In this document: positions 9,781-58,458 of the stretch, piece by piece | Numbering within the stretch: the stretch's first letter is position 1 | Layout of the letters: every line of letters begins with the position of its first letter | From: Candidatus Uhrbacteria bacterium | GTDB taxonomy: Bacteria > Patescibacteriota > Patescibacteriia > SG8-24 | Direction of reading: 5' to 3' | DNA: 64,000 nt | NCBI GenBank assembly: GCA_016929435.1 | Contig: JAFGIV010000006.1 | Span: 8,071-72,070, forward strand | The notes under the pieces: model-generated | Told to the model about the DNA's origin: nothing | Database searches by the model: none | What the model saw: the letters and a program-made list of their open reading frames with translations, nothing else | Translations under genes and position numbers: made by a program

Positions 9781-9983
9781 TAGGGAATGTTCGTTTTTTG
9801 GCATTCACTCTCGTCCCTCTTCCCGTATGGGGTTTCGGTTTTCTGAAAAACCCGTTCCCCAAACTCTTCCCCGTTACGCCGTGCCGAACCCCCCATGTCC
9901 GCAACATTAGGTGAAATACACGGAAAGTCTTGTCGGTAAGATGCTCAAAAGTAATCAATTTTTCATTTATTATGAACACGACA

Positions 9984-10028
9984 ACAGAAAAAGCCATACC
10001 TTAACGGTATGGTTTTTTCTGGTAGGCC
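9984..10028. repeat. att-like direct repeat, copy A (tRNA-Glu 3' tip plus downstream hairpin)
   Basis: acagaaaaagccataccttaacggtatggttttttctggtaggcc matches 14150-14194 (acagcaaaagccacgccttaacggtgtggcttttgctggtagccc) at about 38 of 45 nt. Ends with the TGGTAG(G/C)CC tRNA 3' terminus. Confidence 0.6.
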
Positions 10029-10253
10029 AGATACTCGCCCAGTGGAACCAGCTTATCCCGGAGCTTAAGGCTTGGGCGGCGTTTGAGGAGGTTCTTAAAA
10101 ACGAGGCTAGATCTGGGATTTTGGTAGGTGGTTAGAGTCTGACAAGGGGGAGTGGAATCAGTGTCATGAGAGATAGCATGGAACAACTTATTGTAGAAAA
10201 TTTAAAGCACGGACGTGGTAAATGCCCGTGCTTTAAATTTACAGTTCCGCGGT

Positions 10254-11018: not shown

Positions 11019-11034
11019 ACTTTTTTGTGAAAAG

Positions 11035-14149: not shown

Positions 14150-14194
14150 ACAGCAAAAGCCACGCCTTAACGGTGTGGCTTTTGCTGGTAGCCC
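14150..14194. repeat. att-like direct repeat, copy B (overlaps the tRNA-Glu 3' end and its terminator hairpin)
   Basis: See copy A at 9984-10028. Hairpin gccacgcc-ttaa-cggtgtggc flanked by A and T runs. Confidence 0.6.
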
Positions 14195-14260
14195 GTAGGG
14201 GAATCGAACCCCTGTTCCCACATTGAAAGCGTGGTGTCCTAACCGTTAGACGAACGGGCC
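14186..14260 (-). tRNA. tRNA-Glu (anticodon TTC)
   Basis: Reverse complement GGCCCGTTCGTCTAACGGTTAGGACACCACGCTTTCAATGTGGGAACAGGGGTTCGATTCCCCTACGGGCTACCA folds as a cloverleaf: 7-bp acceptor (G1-U72 wobble), D-arm GTCT/GGAC, anticodon stem CCACG/TGTGG with loop CTTTCAA (UUC), T-arm AGGGG-TTCGATT-CCCCT, encoded CCA. Confidence 0.9.
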
Positions 14261-22537: not shown

Positions 22538-22664
22538 AGTTTATCCGTTAATGGATGATGGGTGCCTGTCCGGGCCGTTTTCCTAGCTTAGCTTATCTTC
22601 TTGCGCTTAATCGTGTCAATGCCGGAAGTTTTTGACGGCAGTTTTTTTGTGGTAAGATTCGGGC

Positions 22665-23540
22665 ATGAACATCATCATTTTTGGCGCCACCGGCCGACTC
22701 GGCACGGCCCTGTGTCGCCACCTGACCGGACACAATCTGAAACTGCCGGCCACCGAGGATTTCGCCTCGGCGGACGGCCCGGAACTGGTCCGGATGATCA
22801 GGGAATCCGGAGCCGAGATGGCCGTCAACACCGCCGCCTACAACAACGTCAACGGGGCCGAGGGGGACGGATACGAGACCTGCCGCCGGGCCAACGCCGA
22901 ATTCCCCGGTCTTTTGGCCGATGCCGCCGCAACCGTCGGCATTCCCCTGATTCATTTCTCCACCAACTACGTCTTTTCCGGGGAAAAGGGGAGTCCCTAT
23001 GTGGAAAGCGATGTCCCGGATCCGGTCAGCCGATACGGTCAGGCCAAGGCCGACGGCGAACGGCTGGTTCGGGAAAACCACCCGGAAGGATCGTTCGTCA
23101 TCCGCACCTCCCGCCTGTTCGGTCCGCCGGGTACGGCTCCGGAGTCCAAGCGCAGCTTCGTGGAGATAATCGTGGGGGAACTGTCCGAACAGGCCGCTTC
23201 CCCGGATCCGAAGCCGGTTTTGGTGGACGATCGGGAGGTCTGTTCCCCGACTTTCATTGACGATTTGGCCGAAGCCGTAACCCGCCATTTTATCGGTGCC
23301 CAACAGCCGGTCGGGATATATCACCTGACCAACAGCGGCAGCTGCACCTGGTTCGGTTGGGCCGAGGAGATCGCCCGGCTGTCAGGATTGGGCGTTCCGG
23401 TGGCTCCGCGCCCCCTGTCCGAAATCAAGCCCCGTCCGGCCAGGGTGCCGCCGTATTCCGTCCTGGAATCGACCCGTTTGCCGGCGCTTCGGCCCTGGCC
23501 GGAGGCTTTGCGGGATTACATGTCCAAATATGGAAAATAG
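22665..23540 (+). CDS. RmlD-like 4-keto-6-deoxyhexose reductase (dTDP-4-dehydrorhamnose reductase family)
   Basis: MNIIIFGATGRLG...AVNTAAYNNVNGAE...LIHFSTNYVFSG...PY.E.D...P.SRYGQAKADGE...VIRTSRLFG matches RmlD. Confidence 0.85.
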   Translation: MNIIIFGATGRLGTALCRHLTGHNLKLPATEDFASADGPELVRMIRESGAEMAVNTAAYNNVNGAEGDGYETCRRANAEFPGLLADAAATVGIPLIHFSTNYVFSGEKGSPYVESDVPDPVSRYGQAKADGERLVRENHPEGSFVIRTSRLFGPPGTAPESKRSFVEIIVGELSEQAASPDPKPVLVDDREVCSPTFIDDLAEAVTRHFIGAQQPVGIYHLTNSGSCTWFGWAEEIARLSGLGVPVAPRPLSEIKPRPARVPPYSVLESTRLPALRPWPEALRDYMSKYGK

Positions 23541-24123
23541 GGAAATTCATGCCGAGACCGGTATTGACGGGTTGGCCGTCGAACCGCAGCCGATCTTCGG
23601 CAATCCGGACGGGGCCGTCCTTCACCTTATTCCCGGCGGAACGGACAGTCCGGAAATGCTGGACGGAGGAATTAGGGACGTTTATGCCTCTATGGCCATT
23701 GGTCGCGGTATCTGGCGTGGTGGACACTACCACGGACGGTTGGACGAGTTCTTTTTCGTGATGTCCGGACGGGCGGTGTGGCTGTTCGTTGACATGCGTC
23801 CCGAATCCCGGACCAGCGGCCGGCATTACCTGTGCGTGGTTGACGCTGAAGCTCGCCGTAATGGCGCCGGTTCATTGGGGCCGCCCGTCCCCGAGTTCTC
23901 CGTGGTCGGGGACATGAAGAGCTACCGTTTGCGGGTGCCGGCCGGAGTCTACCATGCCTATGCGCCCCTCGGAGAGGGGAGGGTCATGATTTTGGCGGTG
24001 GGGAATACGCCTTTCGACGGTCAGGACTATTTCTATCCGGATATCCGGACCGTCGGCGATTCCCCCGCCCTTCACGAGCGGCTGGAGGAACTGGGGCTGG
24101 AAATCCCCAAACCGACCCGATAG
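23530..24123 (+). CDS. Cupin-fold sugar epimerase/isomerase (RmlC/WxcM-like)
   Basis: GGHYHGRLDEFFFVMSGRAVWLFVDMRPESRTSGRHY...RVPAGVYHAY. Overlaps the rmlD-like gene by 11 nt. Confidence 0.7.
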   Translation: MENREIHAETGIDGLAVEPQPIFGNPDGAVLHLIPGGTDSPEMLDGGIRDVYASMAIGRGIWRGGHYHGRLDEFFFVMSGRAVWLFVDMRPESRTSGRHYLCVVDAEARRNGAGSLGPPVPEFSVVGDMKSYRLRVPAGVYHAYAPLGEGRVMILAVGNTPFDGQDYFYPDIRTVGDSPALHERLEELGLEIPKPTR

Positions 24124-24124
24124 G

Positions 24125-24165
24125 AAAAAAGACAGGCCCCCGGAAAGGGAGCCTGTCTTTTTTTG
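24125..24165. terminator. Bidirectional terminator
   Basis: aaaaaagacaggc-ccccggaaagggag-cctgtcttttttt. Confidence 0.8.
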
Positions 24166-24173
24166 AGGCAGCC

Positions 24174-25304
24174 TTACCACCGGATCAGGAAATAGAGTAC
24201 TCTCCAGGAGAGCGACATCAGCGGGTTGGCGATATTGGTCATGAAGAAACCGCCCATACCCGGTTCCTGGAAATCGATGGTCGGGACGGCCCAGCGCAGG
24301 AATTCCCGGTCGCCGATCTTTCGGAAGGACTGGATCCGCTTCCGGCGGTTCCCGATCCATTTCCAGGTGGAAGGTTTCAGCATGGCCCGGAAGGCCCGGA
24401 GCTTCTCCCGGTGCCAGCCGCCGCCCAAGATCGCCAGGGGCAGGGAGGCCAGTTCGGAGACCAGGATGGGAAGGAAAAGTAGCGCAATGGTCGCCGGTCT
24501 GTAGTATGACAGCAGGACGATCAGGCGGTTCCGTTCCATCCAGAAGAACTTGGTGATGCTCTTGGAGAACTGGTAGTGGTGATAGACCACGCTTTCCGGT
24601 TCGATGACCACCTTCCAGCCGGCCGTCCGGGCGGCGAAGGACAGGTCAATGTCCTCGTGGTAGAGGAAGAAGTCCCGGTCGAAAAGCCCGGTGGTTTCGG
24701 TCATGGCGATCCTGACCAGCAGGCCGGCCCCGCTGGCCGTCGGGATCTCCAGGTCAACGTTCCCGGATTTCCGTTCGGTCTCGAAGAATTCGGCGGCCCG
24801 GTCCGCGGTCCAGAGGTAGCCGCCGCAGTAGCCGAAGCCCAGGAAGTGGAAACGGTTTCCGACGCTGTTCACCAGGTTCCGGTCCCGGCCCAGGAGGAGG
24901 AAGGATTGGACCAACCCTATTTTGGGGTCCCTTTCGGTCCTTTCCACGGCCCGCTTCAGGAAAAGGGGATCGACTTCCGTATCCTGGTTCAGGAGATAGA
25001 CGTAGTCGTGGCCGGATTTCCTGGCCGCCTCCAGGCCGATGTTGTTGGCCCCGGAAAACCCCCAGTCCCGGTCGTTCTTTATTGTCGTCAGTTTCGGCAG
25101 TTCGGTGCCGGCCTTGGGACCCCATTCCGCCTCGATGAAAGACCAGCTGTTTCCGCCCTCGGACGGGTTCTCGACGCAGACTATCTCCCAGCTGTCTTTC
25201 GGGTAATCGACCCGGGAAAGGGACCGGAAACATCGGGTCAGGTCCCGGTAGGAGTCGCGGCCCCATTTGGTCAGGAGTATGACGGCGACTTTCGGTTGGC
25301 TCAT
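24174..25304 (-). CDS. Glycosyltransferase family 2 (rhamnosyltransferase-like)
   Basis: VAVILLTKWGRDSYRDL...VCVENPSEG...DYVYLLNQDTE; GT-A signatures with C-terminal TM helices. Confidence 0.8.
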   Translation of the reverse strand: MSQPKVAVILLTKWGRDSYRDLTRCFRSLSRVDYPKDSWEIVCVENPSEGGNSWSFIEAEWGPKAGTELPKLTTIKNDRDWGFSGANNIGLEAARKSGHDYVYLLNQDTEVDPLFLKRAVERTERDPKIGLVQSFLLLGRDRNLVNSVGNRFHFLGFGYCGGYLWTADRAAEFFETERKSGNVDLEIPTASGAGLLVRIAMTETTGLFDRDFFLYHEDIDLSFAARTAGWKVVIEPESVVYHHYQFSKSITKFFWMERNRLIVLLSYYRPATIALLFLPILVSELASLPLAILGGGWHREKLRAFRAMLKPSTWKWIGNRRKRIQSFRKIGDREFLRWAVPTIDFQEPGMGGFFMTNIANPLMSLSWRVLYFLIRW

Positions 25305-25314
25305 GATCGTGGGG

Positions 25315-27147
25315 TTAGTTTTCGGGGATGGTCGGGGACGGCTTTCCCGCCCACTTGGCCAGGTATTTGATCCAGCTGGCGATGTGTCCGCGGGTTTCCT
25401 TCTTGCGCAGGAAATTCAGCAGGGGGTTGCGGATCATGGCCGATTCCCGGCTGTGGGCATGGCGGATCGTCACTTCTGGCAGGTAGTGGATATCCCTTCC
25501 GGACAGCCAGGTGCGGCGGCAGAGATCGACGTCCTCGAAGTATAGCCAGAAGCGGTCATCGAACCCTCCCAGCCGTTTCCAGACGGATCGCGGCAGCATC
25601 ATGGCCGATCCCTGGATCCACTCCACCGGACGGATCGACCGATGGTCATAGTCGCGCATCAGGAACCGGTCGGCGTAGCGTCTGCCCCAGGCGGTTCTCT
25701 TGAGTCCGGAACGGATCACCAGCGGCTGATACCAGGTGGGGAAACGTCGGCAGGTGTCCTGGACGGTTTCGCCGGAGACATCCGTGATCTTCGGTCCGAC
25801 CATCCCGACCTTCGGATGGGCCTTCAGGTAATCGACCATGGAATCGATGGCTTTCGGATCGTTCAGTACCGTATCCGGGTTGAGGATGAAATAGTAGTCG
25901 GCCTCGATTTGGAGGGCCGCCCGGTTGCAGGAACGGCCGTAGCCGTGATCCCCATCCCGCATCAGGCAATACGATCCCGGTAGGACGGACTCAACCAGCT
26001 CGTTGGCCCGATAGGCAACGGAGGCGTTATCCGCCACCACCAGCCTGATTCGGCAGCGGCCGGTTTCGGCGGCCGTTTTCAGGGATTCCAGACAGGCGGA
26101 ATTCAGGTCGTTATGGGAGACCATGATGACGGCCACATCGGTTTCGGCCGGCTCCAGGCAATCCGCCGGCCGGTTATCGCGTATTTTCCGGATAAAATCC
26201 CTTTTTTGGTCCAGGTAGTCCCTGTTTCTCTCGGTATCTTCCCGGCGTTTTTTCAGGAAATGCGGGCAGCGGATTGCCCAATAGGCGGTTTTGGCCATTT
26301 CCACGGCCAGGATGTCCGGGCGACGGAAGATCCAGGTCTTGGGACTGTTGAAGTGTGCCGACATCATCCAGAAATGGTTGCGGAAGGACAGGTAGGCGGT
26401 TTCCTCGGAGAACGGCCGCCTTACGCCTTTCCCGATCGATCGGCGGTGGTAGGCGACGGCCCGGTTGACCGTGTGGGCCCCGAATCCGCCGGCCCGCAGT
26501 CGGAAGGCCAAATCGACGTCCTCCTTATATGACCGATAGGTTTGGTCAAACATTTTCCCCTCCGGATGGCAGGCCCGGACAGCGGCCGTACGGTACATGG
26601 GTAGGCAGCCGGAGACCCCGAAGACCGGCATGGGCCCGGCTGGCAGGAGAATTCCTGTAACCGGCCGTCCGGATCCCATGTCCTCGACCTTCCCGCCCCA
26701 TCCGATTTTCAGTCCGACGGTATCCAACGTTCCGGTCTTCCCGCCGTCCTCCCGGTTTCGGCGCTCGAAATCCCAGCGGTAGATCCGGCCGGAGACGGCG
26801 GCGCAGTCCGGAACGCTGTCCAGCTGTTCGGTCAGCCGTTCCAGGTATTCCGGTTCCAGGAAGGCGTCGTCATTCAGCAACTGGACAAATTCGGAATCGA
26901 CCTTCTCGAAGAGAAGGTTATGGGCTCCGGCGAACCCGATGTTCGTTTCCACCCGGAACAGCTCGATCGGCAGCCCCGATTCCCTGACCGCACGGGCGAT
27001 TTCCTCGGCCTCTTCGGATCGGGAAGCGTTGTCCAACACCAGCAGCCGCCAATTTTTGAGGGTTTGGGCCCCTAAGGAACGAAAAAGCGGCGGCAGGTAG
27101 CGGGAACCGTTGTAGCAGGAGAGTTGAAGCGTCAGTTTGGCGGTCAT
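25315..27147 (-). CDS. Bimodular glycosyltransferase with two tandem GT2 domains
   Basis: N-terminal module LTLQLSCYNGSRYLPPLFRSLGAQTL...VLDNASRSE. Second module VAVIMVSHNDLNSACLESLK...VVADNASV...DGDHGYGRSCN. 4-nt ATGA overlap with the next gene. Confidence 0.85.
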   Translation of the reverse strand: MTAKLTLQLSCYNGSRYLPPLFRSLGAQTLKNWRLLVLDNASRSEEAEEIARAVRESGLPIELFRVETNIGFAGAHNLLFEKVDSEFVQLLNDDAFLEPEYLERLTEQLDSVPDCAAVSGRIYRWDFERRNREDGGKTGTLDTVGLKIGWGGKVEDMGSGRPVTGILLPAGPMPVFGVSGCLPMYRTAAVRACHPEGKMFDQTYRSYKEDVDLAFRLRAGGFGAHTVNRAVAYHRRSIGKGVRRPFSEETAYLSFRNHFWMMSAHFNSPKTWIFRRPDILAVEMAKTAYWAIRCPHFLKKRREDTERNRDYLDQKRDFIRKIRDNRPADCLEPAETDVAVIMVSHNDLNSACLESLKTAAETGRCRIRLVVADNASVAYRANELVESVLPGSYCLMRDGDHGYGRSCNRAALQIEADYYFILNPDTVLNDPKAIDSMVDYLKAHPKVGMVGPKITDVSGETVQDTCRRFPTWYQPLVIRSGLKRTAWGRRYADRFLMRDYDHRSIRPVEWIQGSAMMLPRSVWKRLGGFDDRFWLYFEDVDLCRRTWLSGRDIHYLPEVTIRHAHSRESAMIRNPLLNFLRKKETRGHIASWIKYLAKWAGKPSPTIPEN

Positions 27148-28100
27148 ATCCGTTTTCCGGTCAGTTTTTCGAACAGATCGGCTCCGGCGGCGGCGGCGAC
27201 GGCGAACGGCCGCAGGGCCGCAAGGACGGGAGCCTGCCAGGGACGGCCGTGTTTTCGGAAATAACGGACCATGCTGGCCGTGAAGATGGCCTGCTTTTCC
27301 GCATGGCCCATCAGGGCAAATCCCTGGCCGACATGGTCATGGGCCTCGGCATCGGCAGAGAACCTGATCCGCAGGCCGGCCTTTTGGGCTCGGAGGCAGA
27401 AATCCACCTCCTCAAACCAGAGGTGGTAGCCCTCGTCCAGGTAGCCAATTCGATCCAGGAGTTCCCGCCGGAAGGCAAAGAAAGATCCCCGAACCTGATC
27501 AACATCCTGCGACCGGTAGTAGTCGAAGTCACGGAACATGTACCGGTCCAGCAGCTTGGGGAACAGCCGGCCGATCTTCAGCAGGATGCAGAGCTGGGAG
27601 GCGAAGTCCGGAAAACGGCGGACCGAACCGATCGGCCGGCCGTCATGTCCGATCAGCCTGATCCCGGCAACGCCGACGGTTTGGTCTTCGGTAAGGAGGT
27701 CGTGAACCGTCTTTAGGGCTTTGGGTTCCACCAGCATGTCCGGGTTGAGCAGGATGCAGGTTTGGCCCTTGGCCAGTCGCAGGGCCTGGTTGTTGGGCCC
27801 GGCGAAACCGGCATCCCAATCGTTGGTGACGAGGCGGACCCGGGGAAATTCCCGGCGGATCATCCTGACCGTGCCGTCTTCGGAGTTGTTGTCCACGACC
27901 AGCACCTCAAAACTGACCCCGTGATCCAGGGAAAATAGGCGGGTCAGGTTGGCGCGCAGCAGTTCCCTGACCTTCCAGGTGACGATTATCACGCTGACCG
28001 CCGGTGTCCTTGCCGGTTCTGGCCGGTCGTTGTCTCCTTGCATGATTTTGCCGGTGATACTAAGATTTAGCTTAGGCACGGAAACCGCAATTTCAGTCAT
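27144..28100 (-). CDS. Glycosyltransferase family 2; true start probably the internal MQGDN at 28043
   Basis: VSVIIVTWKVRELLRANLTRLFSL...VVDNNSEDGT...DAGFAGPNNQA. Its 5' end is partially duplicated at 29791-30000. Confidence 0.85.
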   Translation of the reverse strand: MTEIAVSVPKLNLSITGKIMQGDNDRPEPARTPAVSVIIVTWKVRELLRANLTRLFSLDHGVSFEVLVVDNNSEDGTVRMIRREFPRVRLVTNDWDAGFAGPNNQALRLAKGQTCILLNPDMLVEPKALKTVHDLLTEDQTVGVAGIRLIGHDGRPIGSVRRFPDFASQLCILLKIGRLFPKLLDRYMFRDFDYYRSQDVDQVRGSFFAFRRELLDRIGYLDEGYHLWFEEVDFCLRAQKAGLRIRFSADAEAHDHVGQGFALMGHAEKQAIFTASMVRYFRKHGRPWQAPVLAALRPFAVAAAAGADLFEKLTGKRI

Positions 28101-28125
28101 GGTTATCGTCTAAAATTATCGCATT

Positions 28126-28983
28126 ATGGCGGATATCAGTCAATCAATCCCGGTGGTCATACTCTGCGGGGGGAAGGGCACCCGCATGCGGGAGGAGACG
28201 GAGTACCGTCCCAAACCCATGGTGGAGGTCGGCGGTCGGCCTATCCTTTGGCATATAATGAAGCACTACGCCCACTACGGGCACAGGGAGTTCATCCTTT
28301 GTTTGGGATACCGCGGCAACGACATCAAGGACTATTTCCTCCGCCATCACCTGATGGCCAACGATTTCCGGCTGTCCGTTTCCGACGGGCGCTATCACCG
28401 GCCGGACAACGGGGATTATGACGATGACGATTTTCACATCACCTTCGCCGATACCGGATTGGAATCCCTGACCGCCGAGCGGGTTCTCCGGGTAGCCAAA
28501 TACATCCGGACGCCGCGTTTCATGCTGACCTACGGGGACGGCGTCTCTGACCTGGATATCCTCAGGCTTCACGCCCATCACGAGGAACGGCGGCAGACCC
28601 ACGGCGTCGTGGCCACGATCACCGGCATCCACCCCAAGTCCAAGTACGGCCTGGTCTGCTGCGATGACCGCTGTCTGGTCACCAGCTTCAAGGAAAAGCC
28701 CCGCCTGAACGACTACACCAACGGCGGTTTCATGGTCCTGGAGCGCGATTTCATCGGCCAATACTGCCGTCCCGGAAAGATGATCGAGGAGGCGCTGATT
28801 GACGCCAGTCAGGACCGGAAGGTTTCCCTGTACCAGCACGACGGTTTCTGGCACAGCATGGATACGGTCAAGGACAAGGAGGATCTGGAGAGCCTGTGGA
28901 ACAGTGACCCGAAATGGTGCGTTTGGCGGAAGGCCAAGGCAACGGTCGAGCCGGAAAAGGCCTTGGTGGGGGAGAACAGGTAG
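28126..28983 (+). CDS. rfbF: Glucose-1-phosphate cytidylyltransferase (CDP-glucose pyrophosphorylase)
   Basis: VVILCGGKGTRMREETEYRPKPMVEVGGRPILWHIMKHYAHYGHREFILCLGYRG...NGGFMVLERDF...HDGFWHSMDTVKDKEDLESLW closely matches Salmonella/Yersinia RfbF. Confidence 0.9.
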   Translation: MADISQSIPVVILCGGKGTRMREETEYRPKPMVEVGGRPILWHIMKHYAHYGHREFILCLGYRGNDIKDYFLRHHLMANDFRLSVSDGRYHRPDNGDYDDDDFHITFADTGLESLTAERVLRVAKYIRTPRFMLTYGDGVSDLDILRLHAHHEERRQTHGVVATITGIHPKSKYGLVCCDDRCLVTSFKEKPRLNDYTNGGFMVLERDFIGQYCRPGKMIEEALIDASQDRKVSLYQHDGFWHSMDTVKDKEDLESLWNSDPKWCVWRKAKATVEPEKALVGENR

Positions 28984-29018
28984 GTGACCACCCATAAATT
29001 CGCACGCATCCATGAGAC

Positions 29019-29047
29019 TTGACTTTTGTGCCATGATTGTATTATAT
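29019..29047 (+). promoter_or_regulatory. Sigma70-like promoter (TTGACT-17-TTATAT)
   Basis: Upstream of hicB-like gene. Confidence 0.5.
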
Positions 29048-29072
29048 TAGGCGCTAATAAAGAGTACGCAGC

Positions 29073-29396
29073 ATGAACGGTATTTATAGGACAATTTGTC
29101 GCTGGTTCTTGCCGCCGATGGACAGGGTGGAGATGCGACGCCATTACGGCCTGCCGGAGACACTCAACCTTTCCTTCCGAATCACGCCGGACGGGTGGTT
29201 TGCTGTCAGCTCGCCGGACTTGCCGGGGTTCGTGACCCAGGCGCGAAGCCGCAAGGAATTGCTGACGGCTCTCAACGATGCCGTGCTGACTTATTTTGAT
29301 GTTCCCCGGCATTGCGGCGAGGTGGTGTATGACCAACTGAACATCGGTGGCGAGGTCGTCACCTTCGAGGGTGCGCTTAAGGTCAGCCACGCCTGA
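29073..29396 (+). CDS. hicB: HicB-family antitoxin (UPF0150)
   Basis: LSFRITPDGWFAVSSPDLPGFVTQARSRKELLTALNDAVLTYFD matches the HicB N-terminal domain (xxPDLPGCxxxGxTxEEALxxAxEAL). Confidence 0.7.
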   Translation: MNGIYRTICRWFLPPMDRVEMRRHYGLPETLNLSFRITPDGWFAVSSPDLPGFVTQARSRKELLTALNDAVLTYFDVPRHCGEVVYDQLNIGGEVVTFEGALKVSHA

Positions 29397-29408
29397 CTTG
29401 CGCCAACA

Positions 29409-29657
29409 ATGGGGACGTGGAACTTCACGACCAAGCAATGCGTCCACGCCCTTCGGCGACTCGGTTTCTTTCTCTGCAACAAGGGGCGGCGGGGCGACCA
29501 CGACAAGTATTGCGTGCCGGAGCACCTGAAACGCCAAGGCTTCGCTTTCATCATGGTGCCACGCCACAATGACCTGCATTGCCAAGAGGAAATCGTGAAG
29601 GAATTGCACGCCCTCGGCGGCGACGACCTGATCCAGAAATTCAAGGAAAATCTATAG
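29409..29657 (+). CDS. hicA: HicA-family mRNA interferase toxin (YcfA-like)
   Basis: CVHALRRLGFFLCNKGRRGDHDKY...FIMVPRHNDLHCQEEIVKELHALG fits the HicA pattern (LxxxGFxxxRxxGSHHxx...VPxHxxL). 12 nt after hicB. Confidence 0.7.
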   Translation: MGTWNFTTKQCVHALRRLGFFLCNKGRRGDHDKYCVPEHLKRQGFAFIMVPRHNDLHCQEEIVKELHALGGDDLIQKFKENL

Positions 29658-29663
29658 AAAACA

Positions 29664-29690
29664 GAAACCGCTCCCTGTTGGCGGTTTTGG
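29664..29690 (+). terminator. Rho-independent terminator
   Basis: aaaccgc-tccctgttg-gcggtttt. Confidence 0.7.
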
Positions 29691-29749
29691 TTATATGGCG
29701 GAATGGGTAACAGCTTGACGTGAGACCGTGATTAGCAAGATACCGTGCC

Positions 29750-29789
29750 CATAAAGTCTCCTGTGCCTGCCCTTCGGGGGGTGTAGGGG
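29750..29789 (+). repeat. Promoter-proximal leader repeat RepX copy 1 (CATAAAGTCTCCTGYGCCTGCCCTTCGGGGGRGTGT)
   Basis: About 38 of 40 nt identical to 33887-33927. Both copies start about 7 nt after a TTGAC(G/A)-17-(-10) promoter with identical spacing. Confidence 0.6.
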
Positions 29790-29790
29790 T

Positions 29791-30000
29791 GGGCAAAACC
29801 GGAGTTCCAGTCGTTGGTTATCAGCCGCACCGCCTGAAACCGTTGCCGGACCATCCGGACCGTACCGCCACCTGAGCCGTTGTCCACGACGATCACCTCG
29901 AAACGGACACCGTGGTCCAGCGCAAAGAGTCGCTTTAGGTTGTCATGCGGCAGCTCCCGAACCTTCTATGTGACGATGATGACGCTGACGTCGATTTTGG
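29791..30000 (-). pseudogene. GT2 glycosyltransferase 5' fragment (partial duplicate of the 5' end of gene 27144..28100) with in-frame stop
   Basis: Minus-strand translation VSVIIVT*KVRELPHDNLKRLFALDHGVRFEVIVVDNGSGGGTVRMVRQRFQAVRLITNDWNSGFA; about 70% nucleotide identity to 27786-27990. Confidence 0.6.
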
Positions 30001-30061
30001 TAGTTTTGGTTTTCGTCTGGTTCGGTAAAGATATGCTTAATCATGGCCAGAAAAGGGGAAT

Positions 30062-30841
30062 TTAGTCCAGCTTGGCCTGGGTGATGAAGGTTGGGAACAG
30101 TTTCACCTTTTGGGCATCTTGGGCATTGAACAGGAATGGCTGGACATCTCGGGCCAGCCCATCGAAATCAAGGTCCTTGATTATTTCTCCGATCTTCAAC
30201 CGAAGGGATTTCGAATCGCTGACGCCTATCTTCAAATTGAGATAGGGATAGTTCGGCTTAGCGAAGGAGAGCAGAAAGACGATATCGAAAAAATCACGCC
30301 CCTTGGCCCTTGGTCGGTTGGCGATCGCCCATATTTTCCGGGATAGGAGGATATCCGTCGGCGTTACGAAAATCTTCGAGAAAACGTCGAAGCGGTTCAA
30401 TATCCTGCTTTCGGGTCGGTACTCGAAACCGTGGGTCAGACTGTCGATTTGGATGAGTATCTTTTCCCCCTCATGCGGGGACAGGTCGTTGGCGAACAGG
30501 ACATTCGGCAGACGAATCCGACAGCGGTAGGCCTCCTTTCCGGCCAGACTGATTTCCACCGCCATGCCCTGGGCCTCCAGACCAAGGCGGACCTTTTGCG
30601 CCAAGGCCCCGAATTCGTCCTCGTTCAGTCCGAAGTTGTCGAAATCCAGGTCCTCGGAGAATCGGGTGTTGTCGTGTACGATCCGCAGGGCCGTCCCGCC
30701 CAGGAAGGAAAGTTTCGGGGCAAATTCCGAGGCGAAGATGATCTCCAGAATCTTGAACTGCAGGTATTCCCGGAGCAGGTTTTTCTTGTATGGCCTAAGC
30801 GGTGCCGGGTATTGCTGCTCGATCTGTTGGAGGGTAAGCAT
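30062..30841 (-). CDS. abiEii: AbiEii nucleotidyltransferase toxin (DUF1814), type IV TA / abortive infection
   Basis: LSFLGGTALRIVHDNTRFSEDLDFDN is the AbiEii/DUF1814 hallmark (fkGGTAL...RfSEDiDf). Lower GC than surroundings. Confidence 0.85.
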   Translation of the reverse strand: MLTLQQIEQQYPAPLRPYKKNLLREYLQFKILEIIFASEFAPKLSFLGGTALRIVHDNTRFSEDLDFDNFGLNEDEFGALAQKVRLGLEAQGMAVEISLAGKEAYRCRIRLPNVLFANDLSPHEGEKILIQIDSLTHGFEYRPESRILNRFDVFSKIFVTPTDILLSRKIWAIANRPRAKGRDFFDIVFLLSFAKPNYPYLNLKIGVSDSKSLRLKIGEIIKDLDFDGLARDVQPFLFNAQDAQKVKLFPTFITQAKLD

Positions 30842-30843
30842 AT

Positions 30844-31461
30844 CTATTGGGTTTTGATCATCTTAAGCAATTTCTCCAGCCGGTTCATCAGCCGCCGATT
30901 TCCGAATTCCGTGGCGTATCGGCGCAACTTGTCCTCATCCATATTGGCGGTGAATTCCCTTCCGTTGAACCGCCATTCGTGGTAATCGGCATCATCGGTG
31001 ATTTTCGGGTTCAGGTACAGGTAGTCAAGGACGGCCTTCTCCATCTCGGCGATCTTGTAGCCCTGCCCGTTCAGCTTGTCGATCCGATAGCCGAAGTGCA
31101 GTGAGGTTTTGAGGTGACGGTAGGTGAAGTGGGCCAAGGGCGTCTGAAAGGAGACGGTTTTCCTGACGGAGACCGAGGTAATCGAATAGACCCCTTCCGG
31201 TATCAGTCCATAGTGCGAAAGGGCCGACTCCAGGGAGACATAGGAAGGGGAGTAAAGGCGGTTGGCGATCAGAAAAAGGGTTTCCTCGTCGATATTTTGA
31301 TCAGAAAAGGAGTAGTAACCGCGGCGTATCTTCTTGATGTAACCCTTTTTTTGCCATTCAACGAGTCTTGGGCTATAAAATTTTGGCTCAACCTTGCGGA
31401 TATCGTTTAGGGAAAAGATCAGAAAACCTTTCAGTTGCTCCCTAAGTTCTGCTATCTTCAT
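30844..31461 (-). CDS. abiEi: AbiEi antitoxin / transcriptional regulator
   Basis: N-terminal LREQLKGFLIFSLNDIRKVEPKFYSPRLVEWQKKGYIKKIRRGYY matches the AbiEi N-terminal wHTH. Immediately upstream of abiEii. The ATG at 31461 is preferred over the TTG at 31482, which lies inside the operator palindrome. Confidence 0.8.
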   Translation of the reverse strand: MKIAELREQLKGFLIFSLNDIRKVEPKFYSPRLVEWQKKGYIKKIRRGYYSFSDQNIDEETLFLIANRLYSPSYVSLESALSHYGLIPEGVYSITSVSVRKTVSFQTPLAHFTYRHLKTSLHFGYRIDKLNGQGYKIAEMEKAVLDYLYLNPKITDDADYHEWRFNGREFTANMDEDKLRRYATEFGNRRLMNRLEKLLKMIKTQ

Positions 31462-31466
31462 ATTTA

Positions 31467-31512
31467 TTATAATTCCGAACAATACTAATATTAGTATTCT
31501 TTGGAATTATAA
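31467..31512. promoter_or_regulatory. Nested 46-bp palindrome (likely AbiEi operator)
   Basis: ttataattcc-gaac-AATACTAATATTAGTATT-cttt-ggaattataa; inner 18-bp perfect palindrome with outer 10-bp arms. Confidence 0.5.
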
Positions 31513-31588
31513 TATCATAATTTTGGAGGTAATACAAGGGAAATGATCAAAATATTGTGCAGGAATTTTTTAAAACCGCCGTCTTGCC

Positions 31589-31855
31589 TTACCGCCTCCT
31601 GCGGGCGGCGCCGTAGAATCCGAGGTCGATCGTGACGGCCACGGCCATGTCGATGACGGCCCAGGTTGACCAGGATCCATGGAGCCAGTTGGTGACCACG
31701 GAGTACCAGAGCACGGCCCGCGGCAGGAATACGAACCCCAAGATCGGCCACAGCCGACCGTCGAATACGCCGTCGAACCACTCGGTGAGGAAATAGGCGT
31801 AAAGGGAGAATATCCGGGGCAGGCACAACCCGAACAGGAATCCAAAATACGGCAT
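31589..31855 (-). CDS. Small membrane protein (2-3 TM), hypothetical
   Basis: MPYFGFLFGLCLPRIFSLYAYFL...LWPILGFVFLP...VIDMAVAVTIDLGFYGAARRRR. TATAAT box upstream on the minus strand. Confidence 0.45.
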   Translation of the reverse strand: MPYFGFLFGLCLPRIFSLYAYFLTEWFDGVFDGRLWPILGFVFLPRAVLWYSVVTNWLHGSWSTWAVIDMAVAVTIDLGFYGAARRRR

Positions 31856-32029
31856 GGTTTTTGGGGTTAAATCTGCGACTTATCCAATATGATTATACAC
31901 CAACGGCTCTCGCGTGACAGGATGGGATAGGGCAAAGCACCGCCCGGAGGGGGGGGTGGTGATTGTTTGCCATGATCGAGATATTTTTTGCGATTATTGG
32001 TATGATATTGGCAATCAGCCCAATGAATT

Positions 32030-32797
32030 ATGCAACTGTCATTCGATATCTCCCTTGCCGAACAATACAAGAGCCGATCCCAGGCCATTCGGGTCATGAC
32101 CGAATCGTGGGTTAGGAATACGATTTTTTGTCCCGGTTGCGGTCAGGATATCAGTGAATATCCCAACAACAACCCGGTCGGGGATTTTTTCTGTTCTCGG
32201 TGTTCTGAGGATTACGAGCTGAAGAGTAAATCCGGTAAGTTTACGGGCAAGGTCGTCGATGGGGCCTACCGGACGATGATCCAGAGGTTGGAGAGCGACG
32301 ACAACCCCAATTTTTTTCTCCTTAACTACAATCCGGACGTCAATGAGGTTACCGATCTGGCGGTCATTCCCAGGCATTTCTTTACCCCGAAGATCATCGA
32401 GAGGCGCAAGCCGTTGTCGGTCGGTGCCGATAGGGCCAACTGGGTCGGCTGCAATATCCTGATTCGAGATATCCCGAACAGCGGGAAGATATTCTATGTT
32501 CGGGGCGGACAGGTCAATACCAGGAAGAAGGTCATGGATGACTGGCAACGAACCTTGTTCCTGCGCGAAACGGGTAAGCCTGACCTGCGGGGATGGACTT
32601 TGGACGTCATGAAATGCATCGACGACATCGGCAAATCGGTATTTTCGTTGGATGATGTTTACGCTTTTGAGCCGGTTCTGTCCAAGAGACACGTCAATAA
32701 CCGCCACATTAGGGATAAGATTCGCCAGCAGCTGCAGGTCTTGAGGGATGGGGGATATCTGGAGTTCGTTGGGAGGGGAACCTACCGTCTTATATGA
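32030..32797 (+). CDS. DpnI-like methyl-directed (Type IIM) restriction endonuclease
   Basis: MQLSFDISLAEQYKSRSQAIRVMTESWVRNTIFCPGCG...DFFCSRCSEDYELKSKSGKFTG...DGAYRTMIQRLESDDNPNFFLLNY...KIRQQLQVLRDGGYLEFVGRGTYRLI aligns along its full length with S. pneumoniae DpnI (MELHFNLELVETYKSNSQKARILTEDWVYRQSYCPNCG...). Extended -10 (TGgTATGAT) upstream. Confidence 0.85.
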   Translation: MQLSFDISLAEQYKSRSQAIRVMTESWVRNTIFCPGCGQDISEYPNNNPVGDFFCSRCSEDYELKSKSGKFTGKVVDGAYRTMIQRLESDDNPNFFLLNYNPDVNEVTDLAVIPRHFFTPKIIERRKPLSVGADRANWVGCNILIRDIPNSGKIFYVRGGQVNTRKKVMDDWQRTLFLRETGKPDLRGWTLDVMKCIDDIGKSVFSLDDVYAFEPVLSKRHVNNRHIRDKIRQQLQVLRDGGYLEFVGRGTYRLI

Positions 32798-32811
32798 AAC
32801 TACGGAAATTC

Positions 32812-32973
32812 ATGGGTGAATTGTCCAAAATCGCCGCCAAACACGGCGACGACTTGGAGGTTACGATGGCCGATTTCAAGCCGGTGGTGACGCCGTGTGT
32901 GGTCTACGATTCTAGTGGTACAACGGTGATTGTTACGGATATGGAGGATGACGAAAGTGAAGTTCCCAACTGA
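32812..32973 (+). CDS. Small 53-aa ORF downstream of the DpnI-like gene (hypothetical)
   Basis: MGELSKIAAKHGDDLEVTMADFKPVVTPCVVYDSSGTTVIVTDMEDDESEVPN; ends just before a terminator. Below the track cutoff. Confidence 0.3.
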   Translation: MGELSKIAAKHGDDLEVTMADFKPVVTPCVVYDSSGTTVIVTDMEDDESEVPN

Positions 32974-32995
32974 GGACAACCTTTATTTTTTCTGG

Positions 32996-33024
32996 AAAAC
33001 CCCGCCCCCTCGGCGGGGGTTTTG
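32996..33024. terminator. Bidirectional terminator
   Basis: aaaaccccgcccc-ctcg-gcgggggtttt. TATAAT at 33026-33031 follows. Confidence 0.8.
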
Positions 33025-33078
33025 GTATAATTAACGCATATCCAAAAATCCAAATAATCCATTGCCAACCCCATCCCC

Positions 33079-33558
33079 ATGCAACCCGACTTTTCCCGCC
33101 AGCTGATCAAGGGCAAGATCGCCGAGGTGGTCTTCGAGCAGATGTTTCGCGACACCGGGCGGTTTACGGTAATTCCGTTCGGGTATGAGACGGTCATGCC
33201 GGAACTCATGCAGTACGCCATGGGCGAGGCCTATCGGGACCTGGTGGACAACATCCGGAACGCCCCGGACTTCGCCATCGTCTCCCATAACCCGGACGAG
33301 GTCTTTCTGGTGGAGGTGAAATACCGGCCGAAGATGAACGCCGAGGACGTCAGGAAGTACGCCAAGGTCATCTACGAGCGCTGGAAGCTGGCCTGGCTGT
33401 TCTACGCCACCCCGGAAGGCTTCTTTTTGGGCAAGTGCACGGACCTCCTTGGGGACGATTCGCGGATCAGGCCCCTGGACGAGCGGTTCGTCAGCCGGGA
33501 CATCCAGGACAGGCATTTGCTGCTGCTTCGGGAGTTTTTGGGAAATAGGGGAGGGTAA
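33079..33558 (+). CDS. PD-(D/E)XK-superfamily nuclease-like protein (hypothetical)
   Basis: APDFAIVSHNPDEVFLVEVKYR gives the D...(D/E)VK signature. N-terminus KGKIAEVVFEQMFRDTGRFTVIPFGYE resembles an Mrr-cat-like core. Confidence 0.55.
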   Translation: MQPDFSRQLIKGKIAEVVFEQMFRDTGRFTVIPFGYETVMPELMQYAMGEAYRDLVDNIRNAPDFAIVSHNPDEVFLVEVKYRPKMNAEDVRKYAKVIYERWKLAWLFYATPEGFFLGKCTDLLGDDSRIRPLDERFVSRDIQDRHLLLLREFLGNRGG

Positions 33559-33607
33559 GGGGGTCAATCGCACCGTGTCGGTTGCGCCACCGGTCCTTTG
33601 GCACGCA

Positions 33608-33664
33608 TAAAACCGCCAGCTTGCGCTGACGGTTTTGTGGTGGGCGGCAGAGGAGTCGAACCTC
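33608..33664. repeat. 57-nt direct repeat: displaced copy of the tRNA-Val 3' end (28 nt) plus its downstream hairpin
   Basis: aaaaccgccagcttgCgctgacggttttgtggtgggcggcagaggagtcgaacctct; 56 of 57 identical to 34702-34758. Confidence 0.8.
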
Positions 33665-33852
33665 TATCAGCCAAAATCAGGGGGAGGCTAAAGCAAGTCA
33701 AAAAACCAAGAAAAGAGTCTCTACACAAACAAGATACCGATTATCACAAGTCGCCGTTGGCCAGCGTCAACCGCCGCAACCCGTCACTTCGTGGGCAACC
33801 CGTGGGCAACACTTCGGGGGAGGTGGTGGGGTGTGGTTGGGGATAAAGCCTA

Positions 33853-33881
33853 TTGACATTCTGGGAATAGGTTGCTATTGT
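33853..33881 (+). promoter_or_regulatory. Sigma70-like promoter (TTGACA-17-TATTGT) driving RepX copy 2 / NYN gene
   Basis: -35 33853-33858, -10 33876-33881. TSS predicted at the first base of the RepX repeat. Confidence 0.5.
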
Positions 33882-33886
33882 AGAGG

Positions 33887-33927
33887 CATAAAGTCTCCTG
33901 CGCCTGCCCTTCGGGGGAGTGTGCAGG
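33887..33927 (+). repeat. RepX copy 2: leader hairpin followed by a T-run (terminator/attenuator-like)
   Basis: cataaagtctcctgcgcctgcccttcgggggagtgtgcagg followed by acttttatttttatt. Imperfect stem TCCTGCGC/TGTGCAGGA enclosing CCC-TTCG-GGG. Confidence 0.55.
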
Positions 33928-33967
33928 ACTTTTATTTTTATTGTTAAAAGGATAAAGTGCGTTTATT

Positions 33968-34633
33968 ATGCGCATCCAAATTTTTATAGACGGCGGCAAC
34001 TTCCACCACTTGGCCCTGAAGCCCCTTGGTCTTCAGGAGGCAGATTTCGATTTCGACGGGTTTGCCTCCTTCTTGGCTGATGGGCGTCAGATTACCGAGA
34101 TAGGCAAGCGGTACTATATCGGCACGGTCCGAGAAAGGGAGGGAGACGAAAGGAGTAGGGTGGCCATGGCCAAGCAGACAAGACTTTTCAACGGGTTAAA
34201 AGGGACCGGTTGGGCCATAAAGACCAGCAAGCTGCGCACACGAACCGAGAGGGTTCGGATTGATGCGAGGGTTGTTGATTGCGAAAGCCTTTTGACCTTG
34301 GGGATTACCGAAGTCGTATATAATACGTTTCGAGAAAAGGGCATAGATGTCAAAATCGCCACGGACATGGCGGCGGCGGCAGTTGATGACCGTTGTGAGG
34401 TTCTAATCGTCGTCAGTTCCGACACCGATCTGGTGCCGATGATTGATTGGGTAAGGAACCGTTACTCCAAGAAAGTCGAATATATCGGTTTCTCAATACT
34501 CGCCTCATCGGGTGACGCCATGGTCAAGCCAACCCAGCAACTGATCGCACGGACTGATCGGCAGAGGGTCCTGGTGGAGAGTGACATCAGGAAATTTGTC
34601 AGGACGGAAAAGCAGGTCGCCTTGATCGATTAG
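33968..34633 (+). CDS. NYN-domain (LabA-like, PIN-fold) putative RNase
   Basis: MRIQIFIDGGNFHH...KGIDVKIATDMAAAAVDDRCEVLIVVSSDTDLVPMIDW matches the NYN/LabA pattern. Confidence 0.8.
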   Translation: MRIQIFIDGGNFHHLALKPLGLQEADFDFDGFASFLADGRQITEIGKRYYIGTVREREGDERSRVAMAKQTRLFNGLKGTGWAIKTSKLRTRTERVRIDARVVDCESLLTLGITEVVYNTFREKGIDVKIATDMAAAAVDDRCEVLIVVSSDTDLVPMIDWVRNRYSKKVEYIGFSILASSGDAMVKPTQQLIARTDRQRVLVESDIRKFVRTEKQVALID

Positions 34634-34655
34634 AATAAGCTGGACGATGATACGG

Positions 34656-34684
34656 GGCCGCTCATCGAGAGCGGCTTTTTCTAT
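34656..34684 (+). terminator. Rho-independent terminator
   Basis: gccgctc-atcgag-agcggc followed by tttttct. Confidence 0.7.
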
Positions 34685-34701
34685 TTTGATTGAGGCAACA
34701 A

Positions 34702-34758
34702 AAAACCGCCAGCTTGTGCTGACGGTTTTGTGGTGGGCGGCAGAGGAGTCGAACCTCT
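34702..34758. repeat. 57-nt direct repeat (intact copy: tRNA-Val 3' end plus terminator hairpin)
   Basis: Pairs with 33608-33664. Confidence 0.8.
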
Positions 34759-34807
34759 GACCTCAACAATGTCAATGTTGCGCTCTAACCAACTGAGCTA
34801 GCCGCCC
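34731..34807 (-). tRNA. tRNA-Val (anticodon GAC)
   Basis: Reverse complement GGGCGGCTAGCTCAGTTGGTTAGAGCGCAACATTGACATTGTTGAGGTCAGAGGTTCGACTCCTCTGCCGCCCACCA: canonical cloverleaf, anticodon loop TTGACAT, CCA encoded. Confidence 0.9.
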
Positions 34808-34887
34808 CTATCGACAAAATCCATAATAAATTATCCTCCGCAAACAATCAAGCCCCCGGTTCGGGGGGGCTTGATTCGGGTTGGGGA

Positions 34888-58450: not shown

Positions 58451-58458
58451 GGTGTTCT

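Follow-up and report, generated by a model that had tools for sequence, protein, structure and literature searches.

The stretch of DNA analysed here, the window, comprises 64,000 nucleotides of a Candidatus Uhrbacteria chromosome (contig JAFGIV010000006.1). Between positions 29000 and 34810 it holds a block of 5.8 kb in which toxin–antitoxin (TA), abortive-infection and nuclease genes, among them a homologue of the methyl-directed endonuclease DpnI, adjoin a tRNA-Val(GAC) gene. The downstream limit of the block is this tRNA gene, placed by ARAGORN at 34731-34807 on the minus strand (Rfam tRNA, 69.7 bits). The block contains the following features, given with window coordinates and strand.

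29019..29048 (+): promoter-like site upstream of hicB, TTGACT-18-TATATT, 10/12 matches in a consensus scan
29118..29396 (+): HicB-like antitoxin, 92 aa (107 aa with a start at 29073); phrog_497 'HicB-like', E=1.7e-4
29409..29657 (+): probable HicA-like toxin, 82 aa, 12 nt after hicB; sub-threshold profile match and fold model
29750..29795 (+): hairpin repeat D4, copy 1, after a promoter-like TTGACG and cut short by the pseudogene junction
29779..29989 (-): glycosyltransferase pseudogene remnant, N-terminal ~70 codons, with an in-frame stop
30062..30841 (-): AbiEii nucleotidyltransferase toxin, 259 aa; Pfam PF08843, 1.3e-17; PADLOC, 1.3e-94, full length
30844..31461 (-): AbiEi antitoxin/repressor, 205 aa, 2 nt upstream of abiEii; PADLOC, 1.2e-64 and 2.2e-63
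31465..31514 (no strand): 50-bp palindrome, 25+25 nt and 92% complementary, whose two arms both have TATAAT-like boxes; candidate operator for AbiEi, overlapping the promoter
31589..31855 (-): hydrophobic protein, 88 aa (p88), with its own promoter-like site at 31920-31892
32030..32797 (+): predicted DpnI-family Type IIM methyl-directed endonuclease, 255 aa; Pfam DpnI, 2e-73, and DpnI_C, 3e-30
32794..32973 (+): conserved small protein, 59 aa (p59), the start overlapping the dpnI stop (ATGA)
33079..33558 (+): predicted PD-(D/E)XK nuclease, 159 aa (p159); invariant motif and predicted fold
33606..33665 (no strand): att-like direct repeat, copy 1, a terminator hairpin and the last 28 nt of tRNA-Val
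33666..33830 (+): conserved cassette arm, with TCACTTCGTGGGCAACCCGTGGGCAAC at 33784-33810 inside an inverted repeat
33853..33928 (+): promoter-like TTGACA-17-TATTGT, then the second D4 copy and its U-run, together the NYN leader; fold z-score -4.2
33968..34633 (+): NYN (LabA-like, PIN-related) ribonuclease-domain protein, 221 aa; Pfam NYN, 3.7e-13
34699..34807 (-): intact tRNA-Val(GAC), 34731-34807, with its terminator; holds att-like copy 2 at 34699-34758

An earlier, sequence-only reading had listed most of these genes. Its description of a block that ends at tRNA-Val and is put together from separate modules for TA, abortive infection and restriction is supported. Open reading frame (ORF) calling returned all of its ORFs at or near the positions it gave, in agreement with ARAGORN for the tRNA, and the AbiEi–AbiEii pair and the NYN-domain protein that it proposed were recovered with the scores given above, the latter above the Pfam cut-off. 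The PADLOC check that it suggested assigned AbiEi, AbiEii, DpnI (as mREase_II) and NYN to defence families. The HicB–HicA pair is in place as two genes but falls short of curated profile thresholds; the 46-bp nested palindrome is in fact the 25+25-nt one listed here; and a 53-aa ORF is more likely to be one of 59 aa, 32794-32973, judged by the alignment of its homologues from residue 1. Absent from that reading were the 88-aa protein, the glycosyltransferase remnant and the duplication of the tRNA-Val 3' end at 33606-33665, which bounds the NYN gene and not the whole block.

At about 31000-31750 the GC content is at its lowest, 0.46-0.47 against 0.60-0.64 for the flanks, so that the GC dip reported earlier over abiE is borne out. 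At third codon positions (GC3) the genes separate into an atypical group (abiEii 0.71, abiEi 0.67, dpnI 0.66, p59 0.60 and NYN 0.64) and a host-like group (hicB and hicA 0.75-0.77, p88 0.84 and p159 0.86, with the flanking genes at 0.74-0.84); and the atypical modules, abiE, dpnI-p59 and NYN, are interleaved with the host-like genes and with the truncated glycosyltransferase pseudogene. Horizontal acquisition, as first proposed, fits this composition in the form of stepwise assembly but not as uniform foreignness, given the GC3 of 0.75-0.86 of hicBA and of the 88-aa and 159-aa genes. Within the modules, gene junctions of 12 nt (hicB-hicA) and 2 nt (abiEi-abiEii) and the overlapping junction of dpnI-p59, together with promoter- and terminator-like sites and the palindrome, are signals of operon organization. 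Positions 21755-33654 are collinear, with 99.2% identity, to a Logan contig from a separate assembly, which ends inside the 60-nt repeat; look-ups of the exact DpnI, NYN and RfbF-like proteins returned a single Logan sample and zero strain variants. A scan of genome contigs with the neighbouring histidine kinase, aimed at an empty tRNA-Val site, gave distant kinases of Saprospiraceae and Clostridiaceae only (23-29% identity).

The glycosyltransferase remnant is 73% identical at the nucleotide level to 27788-27998, within the intact glycosyltransferase gene at 27144-28100; on translation a TGG has become TAG, and the remnant is cut at ~29790, where it marks a rearrangement junction. Copy 1 of D4 lies at the same place. 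The two copies of D4 (29750-29780 and 33887-33917) share 31 nt with one mismatch, which was matched in 0/100 shuffles, and copy 1 folds as a hairpin. As neither D4 nor the tRNA 3' repeat was reproduced by any shuffle of the window, the two are not chance matches. D4 also lies 3' of hicA in two related contigs, L025 and L026. Mapped across loci (window 29700-29795 and 33853-33928; L025 1395-1510; L026 1330-1445; L019 3990-4085), it consists of a promoter-like site followed by the conserved hairpin, standing 3' of hicA in three loci and as the leader of NYN in two. In L025 and L026, where D4 has its own terminator, a small RNA of ~85 nt is possible; D4 may also serve as a recombination site between modules.

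Related contigs carry the modules in other combinations. The 29019-29048 promoter-like site is the starting point of homology to the hicBA module of L016, L025, L026 and L027. L025 has a tRNA-Val 100% identical to that of the window, and in it hicBA-D4 is followed ~155 bp on by the cassette arm, after which comes other cargo including an IS3 transposase; nothing corresponds to 29781-33605. Because L025 keeps the scaffold without this segment, the run from the pseudogene through abiE, p88, dpnI and p59 to p159 appears to be present in one lineage and absent from another on a common scaffold. Given the per-gene composition, the pseudogene junction and these other module combinations, we consider that the block was assembled stepwise, and that the region is, with a probability of about 0.8, a mosaic hot spot of small, independent modules next to tRNA-Val(GAC).

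Among the modules, abiE is readily identified. AbiEii, a DUF1814 nucleotidyltransferase, scores 64.9 bits in Pfam (cut-off 22.5) and 314 bits in PADLOC over positions 1-255 of 254, and its motifs LGG..x15..DLD (47-68), KIWAIANR (169-176) and RDFFD (182-186) correspond to nucleotidyltransferase (NTase) motifs I-IV as defined for the family (PMC3985639). AbiEi reaches 215.8 bits over its full length in PADLOC, its start at 31461 agreeing with an independent gene call; with NCBIfam TAA_AbiEi (4.2e-11) it stays under the equivalog cut-off (42.8 versus 150 bits). The palindrome lies 4 nt upstream of the abiEi ATG and has a fold z-score of -5.8. AbiEi binds inverted repeats in its own promoter (PMC3985639), as a passage of a second report also states (PMC7319586), and by analogy the palindrome over the promoter is a candidate AbiEi operator.

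The hicBA pair is more divergent. HicB matches Pfam HicB_lk_antitox at E=0.095, under the cut-off, members of its 90% cluster carry the JGI label 'predicted RNase H-like HicB family nuclease', and profile searches detected no DNA-binding domain in its 92-107 aa. HicA matches Pfam HicA_toxin at E=0.019 (15.5 bits versus a cut-off of 27), and has no PHROG or PADLOC match; in a set of 5.8 billion proteins it has only two homologues, one 90% and the other 84% identical. Its AlphaFold model (predicted local distance difference test score, pLDDT, 82) has an alpha-beta-beta-beta-alpha order and its sequence a G29-D-H31 motif. The best Foldseek match of the model is 1whz, which we take to be a representative structure of the HicA family (probability 0.99; template-modelling score, TM, 0.60/0.69; a weak E=0.07), and it superposes on the HicA chain of 6g26 with TM 0.54/0.70, the E-values of the best structural neighbours being weak throughout (0.07-0.6). 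The HicA identity is thus probable on the strength of the model, its structural neighbours and the motif, and profile matches, fold model and source labels lend moderate support to the HicAB assignment of the pair.

For the DpnI homologue the evidence extends to single residues. It matches PADLOC mREase_II at 1.1e-106 and both Pfam domains (PF06044, 246.4 bits, cut-off 26.7; PF17726, 104.6 bits, cut-off 23), and it aligns with R.DpnI (PDB 4esj) at E=2.3e-82 over residues 1-254, across both domains, catalytic and winged-helix, as the sequence-only reading had expected of a full-length homologue, with about half of the aligned residues identical. The catalytic residues E25, D52, E63 and K65 correspond to E25, D53, E64 and K66 of R.DpnI and the four zinc cysteines C34, C37, C55 and C58 are kept, the roles of these PD-(D/E)XK and zinc-site residues having been established for R.DpnI (PMC3424567). 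Also kept are the base-contacting N47, R126 and R135 (N48, R126 and R135 in R.DpnI), the methyl-pocket residues L129, W138 and G140, and K230 and R232 of the winged helix (K229 and R231), which correspond to residues with known roles in reading GATC, in the m6A methyl pocket and in the winged helix (PMC4117772); all 16 residues checked are therefore conserved. Since the alignment is full length and every functional residue is conserved, a G6mATC-specific, methylation-dependent endonuclease is the best-supported prediction.

The 59-aa protein encoded directly after dpnI has nine small homologues of 51-66 aa with 41-53% identity in an exhaustive HMMER search, and because these align from or near residue 1 the start is placed at 32794; a terminator-like hairpin (33000-33018) follows the gene. 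Small ORFs of 59-67 aa stand directly after the DpnI gene in three of three contexts (window 32794-32973; L022 5775-5978; L024 5773-5967). We rejected the idea that they form one family, as the 59-aa protein has no convincing alignment to the L022 and L024 ORFs; one of the three proteins is without a library match, one is listed as PF27350 (precomputed) and one is zinc-ribbon-like. The pneumococcal dpnD product has ~155 aa. Viral contigs scanned with the DpnI homologue and with the 59-aa protein yielded nothing.

The NYN protein is above the cut-off for PF01936 (50.6 versus 24.2 bits), matches PADLOC HEC-09 (3.2e-11) and NYN (1.5e-6), and has the motifs D8-G-G-N and S150-S-D-T-D; a terminator-like hairpin (34654-34678) lies near the 3' end of its gene. 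The hydrophobic 88-aa protein, which has hydropathy maxima at three segments, has no match in Pfam, PADLOC, NCBIfam or PHROGs. For the 159-aa protein no Pfam family reached its cut-off, the nearest being a sub-threshold TnsA-like match (E=0.008), and its family of 238 homologues of ~155 aa is without a Pfam model. In 30 sequences the residues E16, P63-D64 and E79-x-K81 do not vary, and the top Foldseek matches of the predicted structure (pLDDT 85) are all PD-(D/E)XK nucleases: Hjc 2eo0 (5e-4), 2wcw, RecU, influenza PA-N and a SPARDA nuclease. Motif and fold matches thus support the PD-(D/E)XK nuclease recognized at this position earlier, here as a member of an uncharacterised family.

As an alternative to anti-phage defence, the modules could mainly be addiction or stabilisation genes, or resident genes of nucleic-acid housekeeping, with the 159-aa nuclease acting as a resolvase, DpnI serving nucleotide salvage from methylated DNA and the TA pairs stabilising the locus. 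Passages in two reports state that AbiE systems also stabilise mobile elements (PMC3985639; PMC11062541). The 159-aa gene has the host-like GC3 already given, its named homologues come from Patescibacteria metagenome-assembled genomes (MAGs) with the exception of one from Bacteroidota, and its best fold matches are Holliday-junction resolvases; and DpnI homologues abound in Patescibacteria: the family has over 7,800 proteins at E<1e-20, many of them from this group and the nearest 63% identical. We nevertheless regard this explanation as improbable, although it survives better than the other alternatives, because PADLOC places abiE, dpnI and NYN in defence families and because homologues of the 159-aa protein occur in variable regions near recombinases, transposases and defence genes rather than in conserved surroundings of a housekeeping kind: in the contigs inspected (L009-L015) they lie repeatedly at the edge of such regions, with large serine recombinases, Transposase_mut, DNA_methylase, SduA_C (Shedu), SLFN_AlbA_2 and AAA_13 as neighbours. 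The 159-aa family may mark defence islands, or may itself act in defence as a gene that stands alone. The present evidence does not separate defence from salvage or stabilisation.

The repeats at the downstream end of the block concern the NYN gene. The two att-like copies are 60 nt long, 97% identical and have sharp edges; they enclose the NYN gene only, at a distance of 1093 bp, and independent Logan contigs end at the 33606-33665 copy. A third copy of the tRNA-Val 3' repeat was not found in the window. An NYN gene between repeats of the tRNA-Val 3' end bears what looks like the signature of site-specific insertion into a tRNA gene. In tRNA-targeted islands such repeats stand at both ends of the element, an arrangement found for the NYN cassette but not for the 5.8-kb block. 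The arrangement of a cis-mobilisable element, with att on both sides and no recombination genes, is found in the window (1093 bp) and in two related contigs, L016 (1049 bp) and L017 (764 bp).

These repeats speak to the possibility that the whole 5.8-kb block is a single mobile element, a degraded island or prophage remnant gained in one step at tRNA-Val, whose integrase has since been lost. GC is depressed over the full span of 28000-34750, the block adjoins a tRNA gene with a duplicated 3' end, and its contents are typical island cargo. A single gain is nonetheless very unlikely: the tRNA 3' repeat bounds 1.09 kb rather than 5.8 kb and has no further copy in the window, composition switches gene by gene, a pseudogene of host type lies within the block, and in relatives hicBA, NYN and the arm are combined differently and abiE-dpnI is missing. 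Nor was an integrase remnant seen in the block; no recombinase domain was found in the block ORFs, in the L016-L021 cassettes or in ten further window ORFs.

If the DpnI homologue is active, the host must be without GATC methylation. The window has 372 GATC sites (observed/expected 0.94), so that there is no avoidance; no Dam-like gene was found in it, the best tblastn match having E=0.95, and none of its real genes has a DPPY-type motif. From these 64 kb, the host is likely to lack GATC adenine methylation. An absence of Dam methylation had already been proposed for the host; it holds for the window in that no Dam-like gene occurs there, and for the genome as a whole we infer it only. Similarly, no methylase gene adjoins dpnI, as had been noted, but this is not an anomaly, being the normal state of Type IIM enzymes. 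From the abundance of the family, such enzymes seem to be very common in Patescibacteria.

The incompatibility of such an enzyme with GATC methylation is illustrated by a related locus. In L022 (4544-6445; ENA ERZ1757541 contig_12426) a DpnI homologue and a 67-aa ORF are flanked on one side by an N6_N4 methyltransferase reduced to its N-terminal half (1-110 of the 221 profile positions) and on the other by a DpnII endonuclease of which the C-terminal half is present (151-277 of 278). This looks like the replacement in situ of a GATC-methylating restriction-modification (RM) system by the methyl-dependent enzyme, in parallel with the pneumococcal DpnI/DpnII loci (PMC3573125) and with Neisseria drg, and as a natural control the apparent swap displays the incompatibility logic to be expected. 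That the DpnI homologue of the window is inactive or silenced in a host that methylates GATC, a view for which one may point to Dam evidence covering 64 kb only and to a terminator-like hairpin (31938-31961) upstream of a gene with no strong promoter match in a consensus scan, is the least probable alternative of all, since the 16 catalytic, zinc, base-contact, methyl-pocket and winged-helix residues are intact, a conserved ORF is coupled to the 3' side of this full-length gene, the 64 kb hold no Dam-like sequence, and the arrival of DpnI in L022 coincides with a destroyed GATC RM system.

Comparison of the NYN cassette with other contigs indicated a wider pattern. The HicA homologue of 90% identity is encoded on L016, a contig of a related organism (GC 0.567, DHH gene 69% identical). 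Here hicBA (82.6% nucleotide identity to the window) is enclosed by tRNA 3'-end repeats of 62 nt and is preceded by the arm. The tRNA beside this cassette (10419-10496) has an abnormal anticodon loop (a 4-base 'ggcc' in ARAGORN) and an imperfect acceptor stem, and a degenerate second copy of the tRNA 5' part lies 1.2 kb away, at 9251-9318. The window arm (33666-33825) is 75-79% identical to those of L016, L019 and L025, and a metagenome scan with the most conserved stretch of the arm returned five more loci, with GC from 0.44 to 0.63. Seven loci have a common order: a terminator, the 3'-terminal 26-29 nt of a tRNA, a variable spacer of 141-154 nt, TCACTTCGTGGGCAACCCGTGGGCAAC and cargo. The tRNA 3' fragment is Val-like in three loci, from tRNA-Lys in L017 and from other tRNAs elsewhere, and in the window, L016 and L017 an intact tRNA with the matching 3' end comes next, 1093, 1049 and 764 bp further on, respectively. 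The cargo is NYN in the window, a frameshifted NYN with a D4 leader in L019, hicBA in L016 and, at tRNA-Lys in L017, a low-GC aspartyl-protease-like protein. In L019 the arm, an att fragment and the D4-NYN unit stand in tandem, the promoter-D4 unit preceding NYN as it does in the window.

The motif TCACTTCGTGGGCAACCCGTGGGCAAC is identical in five of the six further loci and has one substitution in L020. Its 27 nt comprise two tandem GTGGGCAAC units (9-mers), 11 bp apart. The layout was mapped in eight loci (window 33606-33830; L016 9334-9560; L017 3369-3559; L018 ~1150-1340; L019 3001-3203 and 4092-4160; L020 1886-2079; L021 26-229; L025 1627-1798), seven of which have a tRNA 3' fragment 141-154 nt away; in L025 the inverted repeat is degenerate. 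The inverted repeat around the motif varies in sequence while pairing is kept, as in the following stem arms.

L021: GTATTTCATCAC / GTGATGAAATAC
L025: CCATCACCTC / GAGGTGATGG
L019b: CCGTCACTTC / GAGGTGACGG

In the window and in L017 the stem forms only via G-T/G-U pairs, on the top strand. The stems were tested by a direct stem search with shuffles, MAFFT setting the 3' stems out of register, and six of nine instances beat the shuffled controls at p<=0.014.

The motif was not found in Rfam, in ARAGORN output or in the literature, and the att repeat and arm motif gave nothing, or chance-level 28-nt matches, against viral contigs, phages and plasmids. Several identities were tried and rejected. 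The arm with its tRNA fragment is not an RNA gene of the tmRNA kind, as ARAGORN and Rfam were empty and there is no 5' acceptor strand; in addition, RNAalifold gave no common structure across the spacer, and three of the fragments copy the 3' end of a neighbouring intact tRNA. The motif is not coding, there being no ORF through it in the window or L021, and not a 5'-UTR element of the cargo, which lies on the same strand in the window and L016 and on the opposite one in L017 and L021. Nor are these integron gene cassettes: the motif is unlike GTTRRRY/RYYYAAC, the repeats are tRNA 3' ends and the loci have no intI-like gene. Because the distance to the tRNA fragment is fixed and the orientation of the cargo varies, these features point to a function as a recombination site, for example as arm-type sites for a trans-acting integrase, rather than to cargo regulation; what is recognised might be the motif hairpin, in the form of RNA or of single-stranded DNA that has folded. 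It is conceivable, though we hold it only tentatively and think it rather less probable than not, that the loci represent an undescribed family of recombinase-less mini-cassettes (~0.8-1.1 kb) in Patescibacteria, which sit at the 3' ends of different tRNA genes and shuffle TA and defence genes via a recombinase encoded elsewhere.

How the mosaic of independent modules would work can be set out from the known families. HicA would be an mRNA-cleaving toxin restrained by HicB, and AbiEii a GTP-binding nucleotidyltransferase toxin neutralised by AbiEi, which would also repress the abiE operon at the 50-bp palindrome over its promoter; on loss of AbiEi, whether by infection or by loss of the module, growth would stop. 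The DpnI homologue, translationally coupled to the 59-aa gene, would cut the fully methylated G6mATC of incoming phage or plasmid DNA, and the at least 372 GATC sites of the host, being unmethylated, would be safe. The 159-aa protein and NYN would be standalone effectors of the DNase and RNase types respectively. The modules would have arrived in separate events, the NYN cassette being moved by a recombinase encoded elsewhere, and would act independently as layered defence or addiction functions.

Several points weigh against this account. The activities of the proteins are read from family membership and motifs. Neither HicA nor HicB reaches a curated threshold, and the homologues of HicA number just two, both near-identical to it. 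No integrase was seen in the cassette, the block or the window ORFs examined, so the mobility is deduced from the repeats and the comparative layout only. The Dam status is that of 64 kb, and the exact locus is known from one sample only. L025 could represent a deletion and not an empty site; hicBA and the 88-aa and 159-aa genes, host-like in composition, may be resident; and the 159-aa family could have a housekeeping role in DNA repair.

Two other parts of the window deserve mention. A second small defence-like islet at 57263-58950 (GC3 0.50 versus ~0.8) encodes an AbiLi-like AAA_21/AAA_15 ATPase (PADLOC 1.7e-65) and then a 163-aa partner without a family match; it adjoins a tryptophanyl-tRNA-synthetase-like gene, judged by eye from an N-terminal motif. 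At 9142-12249, ~2 kb from tRNA-Glu (14186-14260), three neighbouring genes with a GC3 of only 0.38-0.44 may be another acquired patch; one belongs to the Cu-oxidase_4 family, and the others, of 254 and 404 aa, match no family and are hydrophobic at their N-termini.

In its main finding the locus is a documented case, in Candidatus Uhrbacteria, of something routine, a tRNA hot spot where genes for defence and addiction cluster; the module proteins are further members of known families, and the missing methylase is no surprise. The prevalence of DpnI would predict that Patescibacteria are generally without GATC methylation and hostile to Dam-methylated DNA, which bears on attempts to transform or co-culture them. 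The tRNA-flanked mini-cassette is the only element possibly outside the described kinds. If it is a true mobile unit, it offers a sequence handle for finding the recombinase and for cataloguing exchangeable cargo in a phylum whose mobile-element biology is poorly known.

The modules can be compared with known systems one by one. With type II HicAB TA systems (Burkholderia pseudomallei HicAB, PDB 6g26; Thermus 1whz) the pair shares two small adjoining genes, a predicted alpha-beta-beta-beta-alpha HicA with Gly-x-His and a HicB-like N-terminal domain; it differs in its sub-threshold matches, in the order hicB then hicA, in a HicB of 92-107 aa in which a DNA-binding domain went undetected, and in being a near-orphan in databases. 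The abiE module resembles the type IV TA or abortive-infection systems of Streptococcus agalactiae and Lactococcus in its bicistronic antitoxin-then-toxin order, in NTase motifs I-IV and in a long inverted repeat over the presumed promoter, although the palindrome here is contiguous (25+25 nt) whereas the known repeat has two 23-nt arms 3 nt apart, and AbiEi is under the NCBIfam equivalog cut-off. The 159-aa protein has the E...PD...ExK signature and the alpha-beta core of archaeal Hjc and bacterial RecU-type nucleases (Hjc, RecU and PA-N folds), but TM-scores are only 0.4-0.5 and identities 13-18%, there are extra helices at both ends, and the family, without a Pfam model, is found in variable regions rich in mobile and defence genes.

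The DpnI homologue is like R.DpnI of Streptococcus pneumoniae (Type IIM; PDB 4esj/4kyw) and the 'dam-replacing' Drg/NmeBII enzymes of Neisseria in length and two-domain layout, an N-terminal PD-(D/E)XK domain with a Cys4 zinc site followed by a C-terminal winged helix, and in having no partner methylase. According to a passage in one report, gonococcal drg is lower in GC than its host genome (PMC4269198), as is dpnI of the window. The homologue differs in occurring in a Patescibacteria MAG, not inserted at a dam locus, and in the overlapping 59-aa gene, without a family match, at its 3' side.

Recombinase-less derivatives of tRNA-targeted islands are known as cis-mobilisable elements (CIMEs). 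The NYN cassette is like such islands and CIMEs in its direct repeats of a tRNA 3' end and in the absence of a recombinase from the cassette, and its arm, with tandem 9-mers at a fixed distance from the repeat, is like arm-type integrase sites. It differs in that the cassettes are very small (0.76-1.09 kb) and a parent element with an integrase was not found, in the occurrence of one motif with the 3' fragments of different tRNAs in hosts of GC 0.44-0.63, and in the placing of the motif in a hairpin with a co-varying stem. On the tentative reading of an undescribed cassette family, the system would be comparable in role to integron cassettes or CIMEs.

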